A stretch of 64,000 bases of DNA, taken from contig JAGVYH010000002.1 of the NCBI GenBank assembly GCA_018303325.1, positions 17,246 to 81,245 on the forward strand, given 5' to 3'. The translations under genes were made by a program, and so were the position numbers. Origin of the DNA: Candidatus Woesearchaeota archaeon (GTDB taxonomy: Archaea > Nanobdellota > Nanobdellia > Woesearchaeales > DSVV01). Of this stretch, positions 3,886 through 64,000 are shown piece after piece. The notes beneath the pieces were generated by a model that was not told where the DNA came from, ran no database searches, and was given only the letters and a program-made list of their open reading frames with translations. Positions within the stretch are counted from its first letter, which is position 1; every line of letters starts with the position of its first letter.

Positions 3886-4036
3886 ATAACTATGAACGCT
3901 GTTTGCTTTATATGTTTTGTGAAGTTGCCATATTCAAGTTAAATACGTGATTTTTAATAATTTTAATAATAATAAATACTGCCAACCATAATTAATAGAT
4001 GATAAAACTATTTATTTTTTTGTTATTCTTTAAATT

Positions 4037-24652: not shown

Positions 24653-24703
24653 TAAGTCAACCTTGAAATGAAGCTCGTTTTAGCTGCGGTTTAGGTAAAA
24701 TCA

Positions 24704-24798
24704 AAGTTTTGTTTATACTAAAAGCACAAAATAATCGAACATTATTTTGTGCTTTTGTATATACAAAAGCAATTAATTTGTTCGAAAATTAATTGCTT
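24704..24798. repeat. Family A double-hairpin intergenic repeat, copy A1
   Basis: Two adjacent roughly 18-bp-stem hairpins: TACTAAAAGCACAAAATAAT...ATTATTTTGTGCTTTTGTATA and TACAAAAGCAATTAATTT...AAATTAATTGCTTTTAGTATA. Confidence 0.7.
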
Positions 24799-33804: not shown

Positions 33805-33854
33805 TATACTAACATCACAAAACAATGTCGATTATTTTGCGCTTTTAGTATACA
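33805..33854. repeat. Family A-like degenerate single hairpin
   Basis: GTATACTAA...ATTATTTTGCGCTTTTAGTATAC. Confidence 0.4.
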
Positions 33855-39519: not shown

Positions 39520-39567
39520 GAAAAGGAGTATTTGTTTATCTGATATTATCTTTTTAGCATATAAAAC

Positions 39568-39756
39568 ACGTTTGTGGGACGCAGTCAATGTCATTAAGTT
39601 AAGCAATTCCAAACCACCAGACGCTTTAAATCATGGGCATCTGCTCAGATTTCCAGCAAGACATTATCGCGTCATTTTGTCGTACCTTCAGACCATCAAA
39701 CCATATCACCATCTTACCTTTTTTCGTGAACGTGTCCAATCAGGTAGGAACTAAAC
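39568..39756 (-). repeat. Family B MITE-like intergenic element, copy B1 (minus orientation)
   Basis: Minus strand starts with GTTTAGTTCC and ends with GACTGCGTCCCACAAAC. The 60-aa track ORF 39572-39754 lies wholly inside it. Confidence 0.65.
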
Positions 39757-39778
39757 AAATATAAAAAAAAGATATAAT

Positions 39779-39912
39779 TATACTAAAAGCACAAAATAAT
39801 CAAACATTATTTTGTGCTTTTGTATATACAAAAGCAATTAATTACAAACTGGGTATTATGCCCCGCAGCTTGCTGCGACACCCAGTTTGTAATTAATTGC
39901 TTTTAGTATATA
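39779..39912. repeat. Family A copy A2, with a 47-bp GC-rich nested hairpin inserted in the second hairpin loop
   Basis: Same two stems as A1. Insert is ACAAACTGGGT...GCAGCTTGCTGC...ACCCAGTTTGT. Confidence 0.7.
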
Positions 39913-41062: not shown

Positions 41063-41158
41063 TATATACTAAAAGTGATTAATTTCCGAACAAATTAATC
41101 ACTTTTGTATATACAAAAGTGCAAAATAATGTTCGATTATTTTGCACTTTTAGTATAT
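41063..41158. repeat. Family A copy A3, inverted orientation with compensatory stem substitutions
   Basis: GCAATTAATT/AATTAATTGC in A1 is GTGATTAATT/AATTAATCAC here. GCACAAAATAAT/ATTATTTTGTGC is GTGCAAAATAAT/ATTATTTTGCAC. Confidence 0.7.
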
Positions 41159-41185: not shown

Positions 41186-41266
41186 ATGAATTTATTCTTC
41201 ATGAGACTGTGGACTGCGTCCCACAAACTGGTTGAGAGCGGATTTACCATTAAGGTTAGTGGGTAC
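41186..41266 (+). repeat. Family B 3' module only (B5)
   Basis: TTCATGAGACTGTGGACTGCGTCCCACAAACTGGTTGAGAGCGG...GGTTAGTGGGTAC. Confidence 0.6.
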
Positions 41267-41423
41267 TAAACAATAAAAGACCTATTTTATATAAATTATA
41301 AGCATAAGACTTATATATGTGTTAAACACACATGATAATCAATAGTGTTTAGCATTGTGTTGTTCCTTTCCTTTCACAATGGAAATACTATGAACATTAT
41401 TCTATTTTAAAGGAGGGATATGT

Positions 41424-48335: not shown

Positions 48336-50273
48336 TTATAGCTGTTCAACCAATCCTTTAAATTTATCCAAACCAATAGTCAGAATAAACTTAGCCAGTA
48401 ATGGACCTCTCTCTTTGCCAATTAATAGTTTATAAGCGCCTTTAAAAAATTCTTTTGGTTCTAGTTCCAAACTTTTACAAATATTATAAAATTCATCATG
48501 CAGTTCTTTGTCTGTCCATGATTTTTGGTGCAGTTTTTTGACGACAATATCTAACGCTTTTTTGATTCTATGATCAAGCTTTAACTCTTCAGGATTGATG
48601 GTTTCATTGAGTTTAAACTTGTATTCATCGCTTGCAAAATTATTTATCCATTGTCTGGCATCATGCATTCTCTGAAGAACAGAGTGTAATTCTGCGCCTG
48701 ACAAGTTGTTTGGTAAATGGCCAAGCATTCTTAATGTATCTAAAGCACGTTCATCATTGTCCATTACAGTCTGATTAACTATGGCAGCAAACTTCAAAGG
48801 AATTTGTACAGGCATCTGTTTAGGAAGCTCGCCAACATGGCTAAGCTCATAAATTCTAGTCTGCATCTTCTTTTCTTTTTCATCTGCCTCTTCTGCGCCA
48901 AAATAAATTCTTTCTGTCTTGTCAAATCTGTCGTAAAGAAATATGATGTTATTGTCCTGTGACGGGTCAAAGTCTATAACAGAATTAGGCCTTGATTTTA
49001 TTAATAGATATCTTACCATATGCGCTGGCAGGATATTAGTTATGTCTACAAACGCAATACCCTGGCCTTTAGAAGTTGACATCTTCTTTCCGCCAATATT
49101 AAAAAATTCATAGCCATTGCCTGTGAACTGCCTTGTTGAAGGATATGGTGGTGTGTAATCAAACAATTTATTTGCTAGTTCAACACCAAAAGTTCTTGAA
49201 CCGCCTTTAGTGAAATGATCTTTGCCGGCATACTCGCAAATTACTCCTTTAGAGAACCATTTTGCAGGCCATTCTACCTTCCATGGAAACTTGCCGTTGC
49301 CGTTGTAAGGAGAAATTTTGCCGTGATGACCGCATCCTTTTGCCCATTTGACAACATCATCCCTGCATTCATAAGTTAATAATTCTGTTTCAGTATCCCA
49401 TTCTGTTGCCATGGTTGTAGCAATCCTTCCGCATTTTTCGCAGATAACATTGAAAGGTATTTTTTTAGCAGCGGCAACATCATCACCATACAATTGCCTG
49501 TAAACATCCTGAACTTTAGGATAATTGTCGAGTACAAGCTTTATTGCTTTATTAAAAGTTCCATTTTCATAATCCATGCCTGTGCTTGTTATTTCTGCTT
49601 TTATACCCAATTCTTCAAACTTTTCTACACACTGCATAAAATAATAATCTCCAAAACTTTCATATCCTTTAACTGGAGAAGGAATGTTTCTAAACGGCAT
49701 GCCTAAATACTTGTCCCATGAATTATCTAATTCCTGATTAGGCTTGTCATAAGGATCTATATCATCGCTGCTGAGAACAAATTTGGCATTTAAACCAATA
49801 CTACGCATTGCTTTGGCAATTGCATCATGAATAATCCAGCCTCTGCCAGAGCCTACATGGATTGAACCAGAAGGTGTTTTCTCGTCGTAAACAAGATAAT
49901 AACCTACTTTGTCTACTACCGCCTTTAACTTTTTATCTTTTTCTACACGCTCTTTTATATCCAATGCTATCTGGTCAGCCCAATGATTGTGTTCTTCAGA
50001 ATCCTCATTATGTTTATGCTGCATTTTAGCCTTTTCTTTATGTTCTTTAGTTAGCTCTTTATGTTCTTTATCTGATTTTTGTGTGATATTTTGTTTAATA
50101 TCTTGGTTGGTATCTAGTTTAATATCTTGTTTAAGGTCTTGTTTAAGGTCTTGTTTAGGGTCTTGCTTAATGTTTTGTTTAATGCCTTGTTGAAGGTTTT
50201 GTTTAGTGTTTTGTTTAATATTTGGGTTAGAATTTTGTTTAATGTTTTGTTTAACAGATGAGTTAGTGTTCAT
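48336..50273 (-). CDS. lysK: lysyl-tRNA synthetase, class I (archaeal type), with N-terminal tetrapeptide-repeat extension
   Basis: HWAD...TPSGSIHVGSGRG class I HIGH region and KMSTSKG (KMSKS) motif. About 95 aa of [IL]KQ[ND] repeats precede the core. Confidence 0.9.
   Translation of the reverse strand: MNTNSSVKQNIKQNSNPNIKQNTKQNLQQGIKQNIKQDPKQDLKQDLKQDIKLDTNQDIKQNITQKSDKEHKELTKEHKEKAKMQHKHNEDSEEHNHWADQIALDIKERVEKDKKLKAVVDKVGYYLVYDEKTPSGSIHVGSGRGWIIHDAIAKAMRSIGLNAKFVLSSDDIDPYDKPNQELDNSWDKYLGMPFRNIPSPVKGYESFGDYYFMQCVEKFEELGIKAEITSTGMDYENGTFNKAIKLVLDNYPKVQDVYRQLYGDDVAAAKKIPFNVICEKCGRIATTMATEWDTETELLTYECRDDVVKWAKGCGHHGKISPYNGNGKFPWKVEWPAKWFSKGVICEYAGKDHFTKGGSRTFGVELANKLFDYTPPYPSTRQFTGNGYEFFNIGGKKMSTSKGQGIAFVDITNILPAHMVRYLLIKSRPNSVIDFDPSQDNNIIFLYDRFDKTERIYFGAEEADEKEKKMQTRIYELSHVGELPKQMPVQIPLKFAAIVNQTVMDNDERALDTLRMLGHLPNNLSGAELHSVLQRMHDARQWINNFASDEYKFKLNETINPEELKLDHRIKKALDIVVKKLHQKSWTDKELHDEFYNICKSLELEPKEFFKGAYKLLIGKERGPLLAKFILTIGLDKFKGLVEQL
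50089..50256. repeat. 12-bp tandem repeat, about 14 copies, consensus (C/T)TTGTTTAA(G/T)(G/A)T, inside the 5' end of the lysK ORF
   Basis: Consecutive 12-mers CTTGTTTAAGGT, CTTGTTTAAGGT, CTTGTTTAGGGT, CTTGCTTAATGT, TTTGTTTAATGC and so on. The period of 12 keeps the reading frame. Coordinates are within about 2 bp. Confidence 0.75.
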
Positions 50274-50352: not shown

Positions 50353-51924
50353 CTATACCTCTGGTTCATAATGAATTTTTAACTCTTCTGCGCGCGAAGG
50401 AAGTCTTAATTTTCTTAATGCTTTTGCCTCTATTTGTCTTATTCTTTCTCTTGTTAAACCAAAATCATTCCCAACCTCATCTAAAGTATAATTTCTTTGT
50501 TCATCTATGCCAAACCTTTTTTTTAAGACTGTTTCTTCTCTAGCTGTCAATGTTGCCAAACCTTTTCTTACTGCCATGTTTTGATCAGTTTTTTCTGCTC
50601 CTGATAATGGGCTTGGTGTTGTGTTATCAGGTATAAAATCCTCTAATGTTGAATGCCCATCTTCATCTTTCCCAATAATTATGCTTAAACTGATTGGCTC
50701 TAATCTTTCTATTCTTAATATTTTATTTACTCGTTCCAATGGAAGTTCAGATGCTTCAGCAATTTCTTCTGGTGTTGGTTTAGGAATTCCTTTTGCTATT
50801 AAATGCTGTTTTATGCGGAGAATTTTATTATATTGCTCAGTCATATGAACAGGAATTCTTATAGTCTTGCCCTCATCGGCAATGCCCCTTATAATCGCTT
50901 GTCTTATCCACCATGTTGCATATGTGCTGAATTTATTGCCTGTTCTGTAATCAAAATGCTCAGCAGATTTAATTAATCCTTCATTACCTAAACCAACAAG
51001 ATCAGATAGTTCTAAGCCTCGGTTTCTATATTTTTTTGCAATTGAGATTACTAATCTTAAATTTGCATTGACAAATGCATTTTTTAAACCCGTGATTTGA
51101 TTACTATAATATCTCACATCAGATATCACCCTTGCCAAATAAGTTTTACCTTTTTCAGTTGTTAATACTTTAGGAGAGATTGTTTCTTTAAGAAGAGTCG
51201 GAAATCTATGCTTTGAGCCATTATCACTAATTTCCAGAGTTAGAATGTCTTTACTAACTCTTCCAATTACATTATCAAAATAAGCAGGTGTAAGGTGTAT
51301 GCTTGCCAAATAAGACAAAACCCTGTCCTGATATTTCAATTTAGTTTTGTTGTTCCATTTAATACTCGATTGCTCTTTTAACTCTTCTTTTAACTCTTCT
51401 TCAAATTCAAATAAATCCATAACTGTTTTATAAAAAAATGAGACATAATCTTCTTTCTGTAATGTATAACTATTCTCATTTAATTTATCACTTTCTGTTG
51501 GATTATCGTCTTGTAATGATTTATATTGTCTTGATTGTTTTGATTGTTTTGGTTGTCTTCTTGTTTTTTTTTCTGGCAGTTGGCCATTTCTTTGCACAAT
51601 ATACTCTAAAAAAGCAGGCTCTTCATTATAATTAGGGGTTGAGATAAAATCATTATGCCTGAAACTAGGAATGGTTAAAGACATCATTAAATTAACCAAC
51701 TCGTCCATAAAATAACCATGAAGATTAAAATAACATAGCAGGGATAATTGGTTCCAAGCTTTTTCCTGCACCTGACCTAATTCTTGTTCTCCTTCCCTTG
51801 TTAAAAGAACTGAGCCTGTTCCAACTTCTTTAAGATACAATCTTAGCGGGTCGTACCTTTCCTTAGCTTCTGTTTCCTGTTCTTTTTTGCGGTAATGATC
51901 GACCATAAAAACAGGTAACAGCAT
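50353..51924 (-). CDS. rpoD: RNA polymerase sigma-70 factor (primary sigma, RpoD/SigA)
   Basis: Region 1.2 (DPLRLYLKEVG). Region 2 (YATWWIRQAI). Region 4 (LTRERIRQIEAKALRKLR). Likely start at MVDH. Confidence 0.9.
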   Translation of the reverse strand: MLLPVFMVDHYRKKEQETEAKERYDPLRLYLKEVGTGSVLLTREGEQELGQVQEKAWNQLSLLCYFNLHGYFMDELVNLMMSLTIPSFRHNDFISTPNYNEEPAFLEYIVQRNGQLPEKKTRRQPKQSKQSRQYKSLQDDNPTESDKLNENSYTLQKEDYVSFFYKTVMDLFEFEEELKEELKEQSSIKWNNKTKLKYQDRVLSYLASIHLTPAYFDNVIGRVSKDILTLEISDNGSKHRFPTLLKETISPKVLTTEKGKTYLARVISDVRYYSNQITGLKNAFVNANLRLVISIAKKYRNRGLELSDLVGLGNEGLIKSAEHFDYRTGNKFSTYATWWIRQAIIRGIADEGKTIRIPVHMTEQYNKILRIKQHLIAKGIPKPTPEEIAEASELPLERVNKILRIERLEPISLSIIIGKDEDGHSTLEDFIPDNTTPSPLSGAEKTDQNMAVRKGLATLTAREETVLKKRFGIDEQRNYTLDEVGNDFGLTRERIRQIEAKALRKLRLPSRAEELKIHYEPEV

Positions 51925-53373: not shown

Positions 53374-53441
53374 ACTACAACGTAAAGAAGAATAGAATAT
53401 AAAGTTAATGATTGAGTTTGGTTTATTAGAACTTATGTTTT

Positions 53442-53587
53442 TTTAGTTCCTGAGCGCAGCCACCTGTCTCATGATTATTTTTAGTTTATTTTATTTTATA
53501 CAACTATTTTAAAAAAATTAATTTTTCATGTGACTGTAGACTGCGTCCCACATGCGGATTGGGAGCGGGAAACAGGGTTGTGAGCAG
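53442..53587 (+). repeat. Family B copy B2
   Basis: TTTAGTTCC...GAGCGCAGCCACCTGTCTCATGA...TCATGTGACTGTAGACTGCGTCCCAC...ATTGGGAGCGGG...GTTGTGAGCAG. About 23-bp TIRs. Confidence 0.7.
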
Positions 53588-53621
53588 AAAAAAGATAGAA
53601 AAATCATATACTAAGAACTTA

Positions 53622-54170
53622 TCAATGATTATAATTCAAAAGATTCTCGTTCCTTCCTTTAACATAATGTATACTTTTGCTGTATTTGAACACTCTTCTT
53701 TCAATCTTTGTGTTTAATTGAAAATAAGCTCCAACCCTTTTTCTTAACATTTCAGGCTCAAACGGTTTAGTAATATATTCGTCTGCTTCTACGTCAACTG
53801 CTTTTCTTACATCCTCGTTTTGATGTTTTGCAGTAAGCATGATGATTGGTATCATTTTTGTTTCCTTGTTCGTCTTTAACAGCCTGCAAACTTGGTATCC
53901 ATCCATGTTTGGCATCATAATGTCAAGTATGATTAAATCAGGAGCTGAGTTTATTTTATTCAAAGCATTCTGTATTTTATTTAAAGCATCCTGTCCAGAT
54001 TCTGCCTTGATTACATCATACTCCTGCTCAAGTGTTAAAGCTATTAATTCTCTGATTGCATATTCATCATCAACAACCATGACCTTTTTTTTCTGATTCT
54101 TTGTGTCCATAATTGTAGGAAAGTAAATTGAATATATATAACTTGTTAAGCTGATACTATTAAGTACCAA
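53622..54170 (-). CDS. response regulator receiver protein (single domain, N-terminal extension)
   Basis: VMVVDDE and LIILDIMMP motifs. Probable true start at MDTKN. Confidence 0.8.
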   Translation of the reverse strand: MVLNSISLTSYIYSIYFPTIMDTKNQKKKVMVVDDEYAIRELIALTLEQEYDVIKAESGQDALNKIQNALNKINSAPDLIILDIMMPNMDGYQVCRLLKTNKETKMIPIIMLTAKHQNEDVRKAVDVEADEYITKPFEPEMLRKRVGAYFQLNTKIERRVFKYSKSIHYVKGRNENLLNYNH

Positions 54171-54219
54171 TATGGAGATTTATAACATGATAGTTTATTA
54201 TTTTGGGTTGTTTATACTA

Positions 54220-54303
54220 CTTTAAAAAAAACTTTAAATTCATGAGACGGGTGGACTTCGTCCTTAGTACGTGTTGTGAGCGGTAGACGAGATTGTGGGT
54301 AAG
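54220..54303 (+). repeat. Family B 3' module only (B6), more diverged
   Basis: TTCATGAGACGGGTGGACTTCGTCC...GTTGTGAGCGG...GATTGTGGGTAAG. Confidence 0.55.
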
Positions 54304-54367
54304 AAAAAGAGATAAATAAGATTAGAAAACAAAAAATCTAACTAAACAACTTCTTATTAATAATTAA

Positions 54368-60491: not shown

Positions 60492-62036
60492 ATGAACAAT
60501 CTTACTGAAAGATTTAAAAAAATTCTTAATAAAAAATGGTACATTCAGGGGTTTAATGGCTGCCTGAATTTCTGTTTTGCTGCTCCGCAGTCTGGATTAG
60601 TTGGATGTCATAATAATCTTGGATATGGTTACACAGAAAAAGTATTTATTTTTAACAAAGATTATGTTGAATATCTTTATCTTGAAGATGATTTTAGAAA
60701 TATTGGGAATACGTTTCTTGAGAAATACAAGAAAAACAAGAATTATCTCAAAGAAGTGATGAAAAAGGATGCAGTAATTGTTGCTTCATCAAAAAAAACA
60801 ATGAGCAAGATAGACAACACAGAATTAACAAAATTAAACAAACAAGAGCTGGTTAAATTATATCAGGAAATGCAAACTGCCTATCATGGAATTCTGGATG
60901 TAAGCCATATTATTGAAGGCATTTCTTTTGTCGTCGAACCGCTCCTGAAAAAAAAGATTGAAGATGCATTAAAACTTGAAAGGCATGATCCTGAATTTAG
61001 AAATATATTCAATCTGCTTATGCAACCTGCAAAGCCATCCTTTGCGAATGAAGAGTACATTGATATACTTGAAATTGTAAAATTAGTGAAAAAAGACAAA
61101 GAATTGTTTTCTTTATTCAATAAGTTAACACTTCAAGAAACAGCTGAAAGATTAAACAAAAACATAAAAGAAAAAATTATTGCACACAGAAAAAGATTTT
61201 TGTACAACCAGCTAAATTATTATCACGGGAATCCTTTAAGTGAATTAGATTATATTTCTGAAATAAAAAAACTGCTTGAAGAAAATATCGATATTGACGA
61301 TAAGCTTAAGGCAGAAAAAGAGAGATACACTTTAAATGCTAAGATGAGAGGGGGGATTATACACAAATATAAGTTTAATGATGAGATTACTTCATTAATT
61401 AATATATCGATGATGGTTCTTCACTGGCAGGATAATAGAAAAAAGAATATTTTGACTGGTGTTTATTACATGAATCTTTTGCTTGGCGAGATTGGCAGGA
61501 GATATAACATTCCATTAGAAAAGATAAAAAGATATCTTCCAGAGGAGATAACTGAAGATAAGCTTGATAATTTTAGTATGGATGATGCTAATGAAAGGAT
61601 GAAGCGTTATATTATTTACAGCAAAAGAGAAAATGGAAAGCTGATATTTGAAATTTATACAAAAGAGGATTATGAAAAGATTATGGATATTTACAATAAA
61701 ACATATATAGAACAAAATGATATTCACGGCGCATCAGCATCACCAGGCAAGATAATTGGTGTTGCAAGGATATGCAAAACAAAAGAAGATCTTTTGAAAT
61801 TTAAGGTTGGTGAAATACTAGTTGCATCAATGACAAGGCCGGAATTTGTGCCTGCAATGAAAAAAGCATCAGCCATAGTAACTGATGAAGGCGGGTTAAC
61901 GTGCCATGCATCTATTGTTTCCAGAGAATTAGGCAAGCCATGCATTGTAGGAACAAAGATTGCCACAAAAGTGTTAAAAGACGGCGATATGGTAGAAGTG
62001 AATGCAAACCACGGCACTGTAAAGAAGATAAAATAA
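60492..62036 (+). CDS. PEP-utilising-enzyme mobile (swivel phospho-His) domain protein with uncharacterised 400-aa N-terminal region
   Basis: C-terminal GGLTCHASIVSRELGKPCIVG matches the swivel-domain catalytic His motif. Confidence 0.6.
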   Translation: MNNLTERFKKILNKKWYIQGFNGCLNFCFAAPQSGLVGCHNNLGYGYTEKVFIFNKDYVEYLYLEDDFRNIGNTFLEKYKKNKNYLKEVMKKDAVIVASSKKTMSKIDNTELTKLNKQELVKLYQEMQTAYHGILDVSHIIEGISFVVEPLLKKKIEDALKLERHDPEFRNIFNLLMQPAKPSFANEEYIDILEIVKLVKKDKELFSLFNKLTLQETAERLNKNIKEKIIAHRKRFLYNQLNYYHGNPLSELDYISEIKKLLEENIDIDDKLKAEKERYTLNAKMRGGIIHKYKFNDEITSLINISMMVLHWQDNRKKNILTGVYYMNLLLGEIGRRYNIPLEKIKRYLPEEITEDKLDNFSMDDANERMKRYIIYSKRENGKLIFEIYTKEDYEKIMDIYNKTYIEQNDIHGASASPGKIIGVARICKTKEDLLKFKVGEILVASMTRPEFVPAMKKASAIVTDEGGLTCHASIVSRELGKPCIVGTKIATKVLKDGDMVEVNANHGTVKKIK

Positions 62037-62113
62037 AAATCCCTGCCACCATAAGCGACGAAATATCCTCCAATAAACTAAAATTCCAACTGCCAAAAAA
62101 GAAGGTATTTAAA

Positions 62114-62386
62114 ATGAACTCTTACCAATTGTTTCAAGCTGGAATGTTTATCATATTTATAGGAATTATTGTATTAATAATTGCGTCATTTCTCAGCGCA
62201 AAAGATGAAACAAAAATCACAAGTGATAAAAGCAGTACTGCTAAATTCAGTGTCATCGGTATTTTCGGATTTATTCCGTTTGGATTTGGAAACGACAAAA
62301 AGATGCTGATAGTTACTTTAATCTTGGCAATAATTATTATGATTGTTTCTTTCTTTTTGTTTTATAGAAAGGTTGTATTTGTTTAG
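62114..62386 (+). CDS. small two-TM membrane protein
   Basis: GAAGG RBS before ATG 62114. Two hydrophobic helices. The upstream part of the track ORF overlaps the preceding gene, so I trimmed it. Confidence 0.45.
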   Translation: MNSYQLFQAGMFIIFIGIIVLIIASFLSAKDETKITSDKSSTAKFSVIGIFGFIPFGFGNDKKMLIVTLILAIIIMIVSFFLFYRKVVFV

Positions 62387-62534
62387 TTCCAAAGCGCAGC
62401 CACACATCTCATGAATTTTTAGTTTAGGATTTTTACTTTGTTCTTTTCGAATAGAATTCTTAAAAAAATATTCATGAGACGGTGGACTGCGTCCCTAGAA
62501 GGGATTGAGAGCAGAAAACAAGATTGAGGACGAG
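62382..62534 (+). repeat. Family B copy B3, begins at the stop codon of the small TM protein gene
   Basis: TTTAGTTCC...AGCGCAGCCACACATCTCATGA...TCATGAGACGGTGGACTGCGTCCC...ATTGAGAGCAG...ATTGAGGACGAG. Confidence 0.7.
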
Positions 62535-62586
62535 AAAAAGATAAAAGAATAAGAGAAACCAGTTAAACAAATAGATTAATCACATC

Positions 62587-63522
62587 TCAGCATATCATTT
62601 CAATCGCTTTCTCATACATTTTCAATTTGATTGGCGTTTTGCCGATGATTTCTGCGTCTGCATGCGCGATTACTGGCTCATCAGAGGTTATTTCCAATGA
62701 GGTTGCTTTAACGCATATAACATCTTTAAATTTATAGACTTGGGTTGTTGCAAAACCAAAAAGATATCTCAATATATCAGACAATTCTTTTTTCTGGAGA
62801 ATGAGAACATCGAAAAAACCGTCGTCATCTTTAGAATGCGGGATAATTTGAAATAAGTTCTGAAATTTTGCAATGTTGCATACAAGAACATAATATCCTG
62901 TATAAGTATTGCCATTTAGTCTTACACTGAGCAATTTTGGCTGATAATTGAATATTGCTTTCAGCAAACTTAAAGGATATGCAACTTCTCCAAACATCTT
63001 CTTTATCTTTGGCTCGACATTTTTGTACATTTCTGCGTCTATGCCTACGCCGCAGGCAATTGCAAAGTATCTGTTGTTTGCCCTGCCGATGTCTAAATCT
63101 TTTCTTCTGTTCTGGTGGATAATATTTATTGCTTTGTCAATCGATTTAGGAATGTTAAAGGCTCTTGCAATCATGTTAGATGTGCCGATAGGTATGATTG
63201 CTAGTCCTGGTGTCCTGTTCAATTTTGTTTTTATTGCATTATTTGGCTTTTTTAAAGTTCTGGCGAATTTCTTTTCCATCAAACCATTAATGGCTTCATT
63301 AATTGTACCGTCACCGCCAGCTACAATTACTACGTCTGCTTTAGAATTTTTTGCAAATGATGCTGCATCACCCTTCTTTTCAGTTATCTTAATATCAATG
63401 TCACCTTTAAAGAAACTTTGTATTTTATGAAGTATTAAATTGCAATCTTTATTTCCAGAGCATGGATTAATAATTAGTGTGTATTTTTGATGATTATAAT
63501 TAATTGGGGTTTCGCATTTCAT
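62587..63522 (-). CDS. diacylglycerol kinase catalytic domain (YegS/DgkA-like) lipid kinase
   Basis: VVIVAGGDGTINEAINGL DAGK_cat motif. Confidence 0.85.
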   Translation of the reverse strand: MKCETPINYNHQKYTLIINPCSGNKDCNLILHKIQSFFKGDIDIKITEKKGDAASFAKNSKADVVIVAGGDGTINEAINGLMEKKFARTLKKPNNAIKTKLNRTPGLAIIPIGTSNMIARAFNIPKSIDKAINIIHQNRRKDLDIGRANNRYFAIACGVGIDAEMYKNVEPKIKKMFGEVAYPLSLLKAIFNYQPKLLSVRLNGNTYTGYYVLVCNIAKFQNLFQIIPHSKDDDGFFDVLILQKKELSDILRYLFGFATTQVYKFKDVICVKATSLEITSDEPVIAHADAEIIGKTPIKLKMYEKAIEMIC

Positions 63523-63547
63523 TGTGTTTGTTTATTATTTGTATTTA

Positions 63548-63746
63548 TTTAGTTCCTGGCATGTCCAACCCGTTCACTAAGATAAATTAGTAAGTCGTTA
63601 GTCGTAGGTCGTTTGTCGTCAGCTGTTTTTTATGTTTTTCCGTTTACAACTAACGGCAAACGACTTACGACAAACAGTTTAATTAGTGAGACGGTGGACT
63701 GCGTCCCACAAACGGAAGGAGAGCTCAATAACGGGTTGTGAGCAAT
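63548..63746 (+). repeat. Family B copy B4, longer internal palindromic GTCGTT-rich segment
   Basis: TTTAGTTCC...degenerate left TIR...GTGAGACGGTGGACTGCGTCCCACAAACGG...GAGAGC...GTTGTGAGCAAT. Confidence 0.65.
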
Positions 63747-63767
63747 AAAAAATATTAATTATAGTGG

Positions 63768-63960
63768 CGAACTTTAATATTTGATTAATTTTGTTAAAGT
63801 TCGCGTATAGCGAACGAACTAAATCACATTATTTTATTAGTTTAGTTCGTTCAATGTAACAAACCCATAAAACTTTATTATTAAAATTTAGTGTGTTTGT
63901 TACATATAGGCACGAAATTTTATGCTCAATTATTAATGTTCGTGCCTATAGCTAAACAAA
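63768..63960. repeat. cluster of four unique long-spacer dyad symmetries
   Basis: GCGAACTTTAA-n16-TTAAAGTTCGC. GAACGAACTAAA-n17-TTTAGTTCGTTC. TGTAACAAAC-n30-GTTTGTTACA. TATAGGCACGAA-n22-TTCGTGCCTATA. Confidence 0.55.
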
Positions 63961-64000
63961 TACAATTATTTTATGCCAGCCACAACACTATTCTCAAACA

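Follow-up and report, generated by a model that had tools for sequence, protein, structure and literature searches.

A probable MITE/REPIN-like foldback repeat family frames single genes in a Woesearchaeota genome

Bacterial MITEs (miniature inverted-repeat transposable elements) of the Correia, ERIC and RUP types have been shown experimentally to alter the transcription of neighbouring genes. Palindrome-associated elements derived from IS200/IS605, e.g. IS608 and ISDra2, transpose as single-stranded DNA and have a separate subterminal hairpin at each end, but no inverted termini. The repetitive extragenic palindromic (REP) sequences of bacteria prefer unidirectional and convergent spacers; their inverted dimers (REP doublets forming hairpins, or REPINs) fold into larger hairpins, their singletons are remnants of dimers, and some families have no dedicated transposase (PMC3733652). 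Among archaea, a MITE census singled out a Woesearchaeal genome which, at 105 MITEs per Mb, is one of the most MITE-dense (PMC11602168). The present study concerns a repeat, family B, found in a stretch of 64,000 nucleotides (hereafter the window) from a Candidatus Woesearchaeota archaeon (assembly GCA_018303325.1, contig JAGVYH010000002.1, positions 17,246 to 81,245 of the forward strand), where its copies frame a response-regulator (RR) gene and a lipid kinase gene. Family B is new, yet of a known type, that of MITE/REPIN-like foldbacks, and its host is a DPANN archaeon; we think it probable that it is a selfish family of such repeats which splits former operons.

The plan of the element was derived from an alignment of more than 50 copies. 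A complete unit is a foldback of 150-230 nt (units in general measure 110-230 nt) in which two arms, 5′ and 3′, enclose a variable interior, and an A-rich tail comes after the 3′ arm; it is devoid of internal open reading frame (ORF). It starts with a T-rich terminus, typically GTATTTGTTTAG or TATTTGTTTAG, continuing into TTCC. The 5′ arm, of about 22 nt, exists in three variants (GGGCGCAGCCACNCGTCTCATGA, GGCATGTCCAACCNGTTCACTAAG and TACCTGATTGGACACGTTCACGAA); the 3′ arm, TCATGAGACGGTGGACTGCGTCCC, is its complement and is far better conserved. The 3′ arm is succeeded by a short variable segment, which is either ACAAAC or TAGTTAC. The TTGTGAGCRG unit comes next, once or twice (at a distance of 19 nt), and leads into the tail. 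The canonical 3′ end reads ...AATATTAAT-NAG-CTAAACAAATAC, and an inverted outer terminus, CAGCTAAACAAATAC, which is the complement of the 5′ terminus, closes 27 of 50 copies, the outer inverted termini reading TATTTGTTTAG and CTAAACAAATA. One internally deleted copy retains both termini, which shows that they belong to the element. The interiors, 50-120 nt long, fall into at least six unrelated sequence families, each of them a hairpin with arms of 7-8 nt periodic units. Paired 5′ and 3′ arms are separated by 80-170 nt; solo 3′ arms occur besides, and nested 5′ arms are seen in some copies. A small hairpin in the 3′ tail (CCCACAAAC / GTTGTGRG), judged by eye, was discarded as a component of the plan because the TAGTTAC variant of the tail cannot form it. 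As a side observation, the periodic units of the interior differ between subfamilies (TTAGAAAG/CTTGAAAG, GTTAGTC/GTAGGTC, GGTAAGAA, CTAGGTG, TTTGACG); such units (e.g. window 63575-63680, L023 3150-3225, L003 2950-3045) loosely fit TTWG+NNN, and so does the terminus TATTTG-TTTAGTT.

With bacterial REPs and REPINs, family B has in common that it is short, non-coding, present in high copy number and strictly intergenic, that it lies mostly between unidirectional and convergent genes, and that it consists of palindromic inverted doublets, whose arms fold into one long hairpin, together with decayed singletons, the solo arms, as doublet remnants; long vertical persistence and a transposase that is sometimes unidentifiable are further points of likeness. 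It differs by its host, by its ~22-nt arms enclosing interiors of several unrelated families, by an asymmetric 3′ tail with TTGTGAGCRG units plus an outer inverted terminus, and in that no gene of the RAYT type (REP-associated tyrosine transposase) was found by a tblastn search of about 0.6 Mb of partial genomes with two Y1 sequences as queries, which is a weak test. With MITEs it shares size, lack of coding capacity, terminal inverted repeats, many dispersed and nested copies, intergenic location, assembly breaks and insertion polymorphism (at L033:1787 and at the core of the copy B6, see below). It departs from them in that neighbouring copies are co-oriented, no consistent target-site duplication is seen, and no parent insertion sequence (IS), i.e. 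a related autonomous element with the same ends, was found around the copies in about 590 kb of partial genomes. The IS200/IS605-derived elements are approached in richness in hairpins and in a co-orientation that does not depend on gene strand, which is what insertion into a single replication strand would produce; however, B is one large foldback with inverted termini, and neither TnpA nor TnpB was found nearby. Finally, like the Correia, ERIC and RUP elements, B is inserted beside genes and its ends may create promoters or terminators (cf. the terminus of B4 before the kinase gene), with the difference that for B such a role is putative and suggested by position.

The 11-mer core of the family occurs seven times in the window, against 1.6 expected. 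The longer 21-mer core, TGWGACNGTRGACTGCGTCCC, was present in only one of 185,579 GTDB species representatives, the Woesearchaeota metagenome-assembled genome (MAG) JACQSP01, where it lies in 35 stretches; at least seven JACQSP01 contigs end no more than about 230 nt from such a core, which is the signature of a repeat breaking assemblies. An nhmmer profile detected 48 3′ arms in 232 kb of MAG loci, in addition to six in the window. In a metagenome collection, 34 stretches contained the 21-mer core, of which 32 were genuine, and about 30 further loci carry family B. Three viral hits and the same sequence on a metagenome contig (L061) were rejected as one chance 21-mer inside a phage gene, and one high-GC metagenome match to the core was likewise attributed to chance. 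A BLAST search with the copy B3 against phage and plasmid collections gave no match, and the orthologous loci of a more distant Woesearchaeon had no B modules. For the family as a whole, chance is excluded as an explanation. As part of the MITE/REPIN reading, and with the same good but incomplete assurance, we consider B to be a lineage-restricted, high-copy, non-coding repeat of a groundwater clade of Woesearchaeota.

The original prediction had noted that two copies (B2 and B6) flank the RR gene and two others (B3 and B4) the lipid kinase gene, all in the same orientation. Both observations were borne out: the four elements are on the + strand and the two framed genes on the - strand (Table 1). 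All four had been described as 3′ modules, which is right for B6, a solo 3′ arm, whereas B2, B3 and B4 turned out to be complete foldbacks, more extended than had been proposed, with a 5′ arm located 80-135 nt upstream of the 3′ arm as its inverted complement. That rimK is also framed by B elements is real too, the difference being that the two copies flanking it are in inverted orientation. To explain the framing, it had been suggested that the elements mediate cassette-like gain and loss of genes, or else that they deliver transcription signals to regulatory or accessory genes.

Comparison with relatives bears directly on the first suggestion. In a distant Woesearchaeota genome without B elements (GCA_043813525.1), the order PTH2, mechanosensitive (MS) channel, Yip1, RR, U32 is found with spacers of 55 nt and 2 nt around RR (locus L085), and TldD, TldD, kinase and GyrA follow one another with 12-21 nt spacers, that of the kinase being 12 nt (L044); the same TldD-TldD-kinase order was observed on a JGI contig. 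The framed genes thus occupy the same positions, with tight spacers, in relatives free of B, from which we conclude that they are ancestral and that the elements were inserted later, on both sides. Judged by gene order, Yip1-RR-U32 and TldD-TldD-kinase are ancestral tight clusters and the elements are the later, variable part; since these landed within formerly tight clusters, single ancestral genes now look framed. In the sister MAG, contig JACQSP010000139, syntenic with window 50.3-57.7 kb at 84-94% identity, contains U32, B2, RR, B6 and Yip1 in the same order and, further along, the kinase gene with B3 and the 5′ end of B4. Between relatives it is the elements that vary and not the framed genes. 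The B6 ortholog in locus L023 of the MAG carries an extra hairpin insert; in locus L084, the Yip1-RR spacer is 101 nt long and the B6 core is missing; and the MAG copy L033:1787 has no counterpart in L066. The B4 ortholog of the MAG has its 5′ terminus at the same distance from the kinase ATG. Six contigs of the same species, obtained from different samples, all have B3 and B4, B3 being identical in them, and no insertion polymorphism was seen among the six. In an 86%-identity relative, one deletion of about 510 nt with TTGAA microhomology (window 62040-62586 versus L043 921-926) took B3, DUF131 and the last kinase codons, leaving the kinase gene in place and the first three DUF131 codons.

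A cassette model would hold that B elements are recombination sites, analogous to integron attC sites or to the ends of a composite transposon, which move the genes that they bracket. For the framing of three single genes by six copies, random placement among the 52 window spacers gives P = 0.005-0.012 (i.e. ~0.01), a figure to be read as post hoc, this very pattern being the reason why the window was flagged, and similar one-gene brackets were found at other loci. However, RR and kinase stand at the same positions in B-free relatives, and the sister species has both of them together with their elements, so that the expected presence/absence pattern of bracketed genes across relatives was not recovered: both genes are retained, whereas the B6 core and other B copies vary. 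The loss of DUF131 described above has microhomology endpoints away from the B arms. Moreover, the bracketed gene is not mobile as a unit, the bracketed genes are functionally unrelated, no transposase was noticed nearby, and no integrase or recombinase was detected in Pfam scans of 40 window ORFs (these cover the region from ~24.9 kb to the window end, the first ~25 kb being unscanned). Lastly, the orientation of the elements relative to genes is random, where attC sites would have a fixed one. For RR and kinase, gain and loss as cassettes is thereby refuted, and we give next to no credence to movement of bracketed genes in general.

The genomic context of the copies provides a simpler account of the framing. 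All 54 scored copies are intergenic. Where both neighbours were called (33 copies), the genes were in tandem in 21 cases, convergent in nine and divergent in three. In many copies 7-18 nt separate the 3′ terminus from the stop of a gene on the opposite strand, while the 5′ terminus lies 10-60 nt past the upstream stop, its TAG being the stop codon itself in three copies, B3 included. The gene downstream of a copy is antiparallel to it in 28 instances and parallel in 22; orientation relative to genes is therefore about random. Close pairs of B copies are common in other loci, where the genes framed encode a histone, an EamA transporter, a methyltransferase, an Obg-like GTPase and several proteins without Pfam match. 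These are functionally unrelated, and the proposed tie of B to regulatory or accessory genes found no support in the form of enrichment. The simplest reading is that framing arises because the elements are dense and favour the spacers that border transcription units.

Another possibility is that B elements are genes for structured small RNAs, in which the arms would serve as scaffold and the interior as specificity region. The conserved ends with highly variable interiors, the very stable hairpins predicted (-40 to -70 kcal/mol for complete units) and the conserved motif of the 3′ tail would all suit such genes. Nevertheless, none of the 22 arm pairs was changed on both sides among 23 copies of variant i, i.e. 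there were no compensatory changes, and over these copies the 22-nt arms were paired at 88.5% of cells, compared to 89.0% in shuffles. The frequent 5′-arm change from GCGCAG to GCGAAG is never compensated, and B2 of the window has two uncompensated stem mismatches relative to L023. The + strand was favoured by folding energy in 12 of 29 copies, and no strand difference was seen in the count of G-U pairs either. Rfam returned no hits over the whole window at the gathering score and, when relaxed to E<=1 at both loci, only noise from plant miRNA hairpins far below threshold. In addition, the promoter context is inconsistent, with copies abutting or overlapping stop codons on either side, and solo arms and internally deleted copies are common. 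A small-RNA function thus appears very improbable. Since there is no covariation, no strand preference and no Rfam match, the B hairpin is, on the pattern of substitutions, best described as an inverted DNA repeat that decays by mutation and not as a selected RNA helix. The GTGG/GTAG and CGTC strings of the 3′ arm are located within the paired region.

As to transcription signals, it is possible that some B copies deliver them, and a stronger form of this idea is that B is domesticated intergenic punctuation, kept for these signals and making RR and kinase separately controlled. The inward T-rich termini and the large hairpin would then act as bidirectional terminators, and the A/T-rich terminus as a TATA box for the next gene. 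Several observations agree with this: 30 of 33 copies adjoin the 3′ end of a gene on one side or on both, the terminus CTAAACAAATAC and the 5′ terminus are located with respect to stop codons as described above, and the 3′ arm of B2 is well conserved between species (see below). In the case of the kinase gene, nothing A/T-rich stands at promoter distance except the terminus of B4, which is located 20-29 nt upstream of the ATG (63522), at a position conserved in the MAG. Similarly, in locus L036, a B terminus is found 20 nt upstream of the ATG of the second TldD gene, just beyond the window; this belongs to a further copy (L036 1005-1140) between the two TldD/PmbA genes. Overall, a B terminus stands at TATA distance, 20-37 nt upstream of an ATG, for the kinase, for the second TldD and for about four other genes, i.e. 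in about six of about 14 such contexts. In B-free relatives the spacers of the kinase and second TldD genes are only 12-15 nt long, and transcription of these two genes would now either have to cross a very stable hairpin or start anew from the end of the element.

Against the punctuation idea, RR and U32 have their own TATA boxes outside the elements. That of RR, TTATATATAT at 54131-54141, is 21-31 nt upstream of the ATG and outside B6, in a promoter block conserved in L023 and L084; that of U32 is outside B2. The terminus also resembles the local TATA consensus TTTATATA only weakly, the stems decay without compensation, heavy rearrangement is seen in B6 and in the B4 ortholog of the MAG although their neighbours are intact, and orientation relative to genes is, again, random. 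Domestication for transcription control is therefore unlikely in our view. The terminus CTAAACAAATAC was also considered as a general promoter and rejected as such: distances to downstream ATGs are scattered from 25 to 115 nt and one of the two cases with 25 nt has a Shine-Dalgarno leader, so that it is not a general TATA box.

We return to the reading of B as a selfish MITE/REPIN-like family. Copies would have spread into intergenic spacers, mostly beside gene 3′ ends, and would then have decayed to solo 3′ arms such as B6, gained nested small hairpins and exchanged interiors with paralogs. The mechanism may have been strand-specific and linked to replication, through single-stranded DNA, as hinted by the shared orientation of neighbouring copies. 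Effects on transcription, e.g. T-rich termini working as terminators or an A/T-rich terminus as TATA box for a gene cut off from its operon, would be a by-product or a secondary co-option, and not the reason for the position of the element. A more specific version would make B an archaeal counterpart of REPINs, mobilised by a single-copy, HUH-type single-strand-DNA transposase and co-opted as intergenic punctuation, with terminator-like T-rich ends and a TATA-like terminus that re-promotes genes of split operons (Yip1-RR-U32 and TldD-TldD-kinase). Mobilisation of the HUH type would explain why adjacent copies lie on one strand whatever the direction of the genes. Counted over all loci with at least two copies (the window, L004-L033 and L050-L082), neighbouring copies had the same orientation in 28 cases and the opposite one in seven (P=5e-4; ~25 versus 7 without obvious duplicates). 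This co-orientation is independent of the strand of the adjacent gene: within the window, gene direction switches while copies stay on one strand. GC skew tracks the strand of the genes and does not inform on the direction of replication. As a whole, we hold this more specific version to be distinctly unlikely.

Several results weigh against the MITE/REPIN interpretation itself. The co-orientation just mentioned is atypical of cut-and-paste MITEs. There is no consistent target-site duplication: the candidates, AGAACTTAT at B2 and AAAGATA at L002, differ between copies or orthologs, flanks are AT-rich, and the empty sites in L066 and L084 are too diverged. No mobilising enzyme came to light. 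When the ORFs of 120 aa or more from the ~590 kb of partial genomes were clustered all against all, with a multi-copy ORF or transposase in view, only redundant contigs came up, and the tblastn search mentioned above, a weak one, with IS200 TnpA and E. coli RAYT as queries, gave nothing below E=2.8. Furthermore, each of B2, B3, B4 and B6 has its ortholog in a second species, ~12-15% different in DNA, which means that most examined copies are old and not recent jumps, and the 3′ arm of B2 is 92% identical between these species, i.e. as conserved as coding DNA, a level that could reflect function. The invariance of the core across paralogs is partly an ascertainment bias, copies having been found by searching with that core. 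Finally, the replacement of whole interiors at orthologous sites does not follow from the MITE/REPIN interpretation. The B2 ortholog in L023 keeps the copy-specific tail ACATGCGGATTG.GAGCGG while its interior is completely different; the shared tail (ACATGCGG...) proves orthology despite this. The B3 ortholog in L042, another MAG locus, also has a different interior. Gene conversion between paralogs is the likeliest cause of these swaps.

With respect to the same interiors, we observed that at both sites (53475-53522 versus L023 3150-3225 for B2; 62415-62465 versus L042 ~1400-1500 for B3) they are of an AT-rich type in the window and of a TTGAAAG-repeat type in the MAG. Two candidate routes to an autonomous copy led nowhere: none of the orphan 5′ arms is followed by an ORF-bearing interior, and the only gene lying within a long-range 5′...3′ pair of arms, spaced by 1 kb in L031, is that of a host histone and not of a transposase.

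The copies of the window and the genes that they frame are listed in Table 1. With the 3′-arm profile, the six window copies were detected by nhmmer at E=1.6e-16 to 6.5e-5, B6 at E=3.6e-9 and the other three flanking elements at 1e-12 to 1e-16. The 5′ arm of B2 and B3 is TTTAGTTCC..GCGCAGCCAC..GTCTCATGA, B4 having the variant GGCATGTCCAACCCGTTCACTAAG, and the first base of the GAGC unit is variable in the window elements, (G/A)TTGTGAGCRG. The DNA fold of B3 was evaluated at -24.1 kcal/mol (z=-3.4); the TAG at 62384-62386, within its terminus, is the stop codon of the DUF131 ORF, and the kinase stop lies at 62587. The hairpin array that displaces the 3′ terminus of B4 is absent between tail and 3′ terminus in canonical copies. 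The RR gene had been delimited as 53622-54170; counted from its ATG it is shorter, 53622-54110.

Table 1. Family B elements of the window, with the genes that they frame and associated features
Feature	Position	Strand	Description
B2	53436..53615	+	Complete; 5′ arm 53442-53474, AT-rich interior 53475-53522, 3′ arm and two GAGC units 53523-53587, A-rich tail to ~53615
B2 neighbours	peptidase U32 start 53373; RR stop 53622		B2 in between
RR gene	53622..54110	-	Single-domain response regulator, ATG 54110; Pfam Response_reg E=1.7e-28
B6	54220..54350	+	Degenerate solo 3′ arm, core 54238-54289, GACTTCGTCCT in place of GACTGCGTCCC
B6 end	54338..54350		Terminal CTAACTAAACAAC, after tail; 17 nt before Yip1 stop 54368
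B3	62376..62573	+	Complete; inverted termini TATTTGTTTAG 62376-62386 and TTAAACAAATA 62563-62573
Kinase gene	62587..63522	-	DAGK/YegS-family lipid kinase, 311 aa; Pfam DAGK_cat and YegS_C
B4 main body	63542..63746	+	5′ terminus TATTTATTTAGTTCC, variant-ii 5′ arm, interior hairpin of GTNNGTC units, 3′ arm, one GAGC unit
Hairpin array in B4 tail	63763..63950	.	190-nt array of four unrelated small hairpins of the TATAG-stem-AT loop-stem-CTATA type
B4 displaced 3′ terminus	63951..63964	+	AGCTAAACAAATAC; few nt from stop of upstream TldD/PmbA gene (- strand)
rimK-side B copy	39529..39761	-	Variant-iii 5′ arm, truncated 3′ arm; between Zn-protease-like gene and rimK
Solo 3′ arm	~41189..41276	+	Downstream of rimK; nhmmer E=1.6e-16

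Other features were noticed in or around these copies. About 44 nt towards the 3′ end of the RR gene (53698-53741) are missing in locus L055, a contig of the same species that comes from another metagenome and is 100% identical over 2.5 kb. The small hairpins of the B4 tail represent a second class that occurs in tandem arrays inside B tails (window 63763-63950; L031 2300-2580; L042 1-110; L023 ~3960-4030); their stem is ~12 bp long, often bounded by TATAG...CTATA, with an AT-rich loop of ~25 nt, and the stem sequence is different in every unit. A distinct palindrome, TATAC(A/T)AAAGCACAAAATAAT...ATTATTTTGTGCTTTTGTATA, is found at 24698-24778, 33805-33852, 39763-39843 and 41110-41157, and two of these four copies directly adjoin the B copies flanking rimK; it probably corresponds to what the original prediction called family A.

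The window itself is AT-rich (30.8% GC), and Pfam scans recognised in it the archaeal marker genes PTH2, DUF131 and class-I lysyl-tRNA synthetase; a scan for tRNA and tmRNA genes in the window found none. Public records assign its kinase and Yip1 proteins to Candidatus Woesearchaeota. The source population is present in many groundwater-type metagenomes, including those behind the contig sets Ga0209211 and Ga0209343, the kinase protein being found on 23 contigs. Sigma factors are not known to be part of archaeal transcription, and yet a 523-aa ORF (50353-51924, - strand) of this archaeal genome has the bacterial sigma-70 regions 2, 3 and 4. DNA syntenic with the region of this ORF also exists in the sister MAG, and a second ORF (60492-62036, + strand) combines a PEP-utilizers mobile domain with a weak match to sigma-70 region 4. 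The gene of the class-I lysyl-tRNA synthetase (48336-50273, - strand) contains, in its 5′ part, a 12-nt tandem repeat of at least 13 units (50065-50266), which would encode a repetitive N-terminal extension of the enzyme.

For the RR and kinase genes the outcome is deflationary, i.e. they are not mobile cassettes. For the organisms that carry it, family B may matter more. DPANN genomes are small and compact, and a repeat that fills many spacers and splits operons visibly shapes how they evolve; in practice, it also makes assemblies fragment. Should the co-orientation of neighbouring copies reflect a mechanism linked to replication, then REPIN-like biology would be extended to archaea. And if the termini act as promoters or terminators, family B would provide a natural example of operons rewired by mobile repeats.

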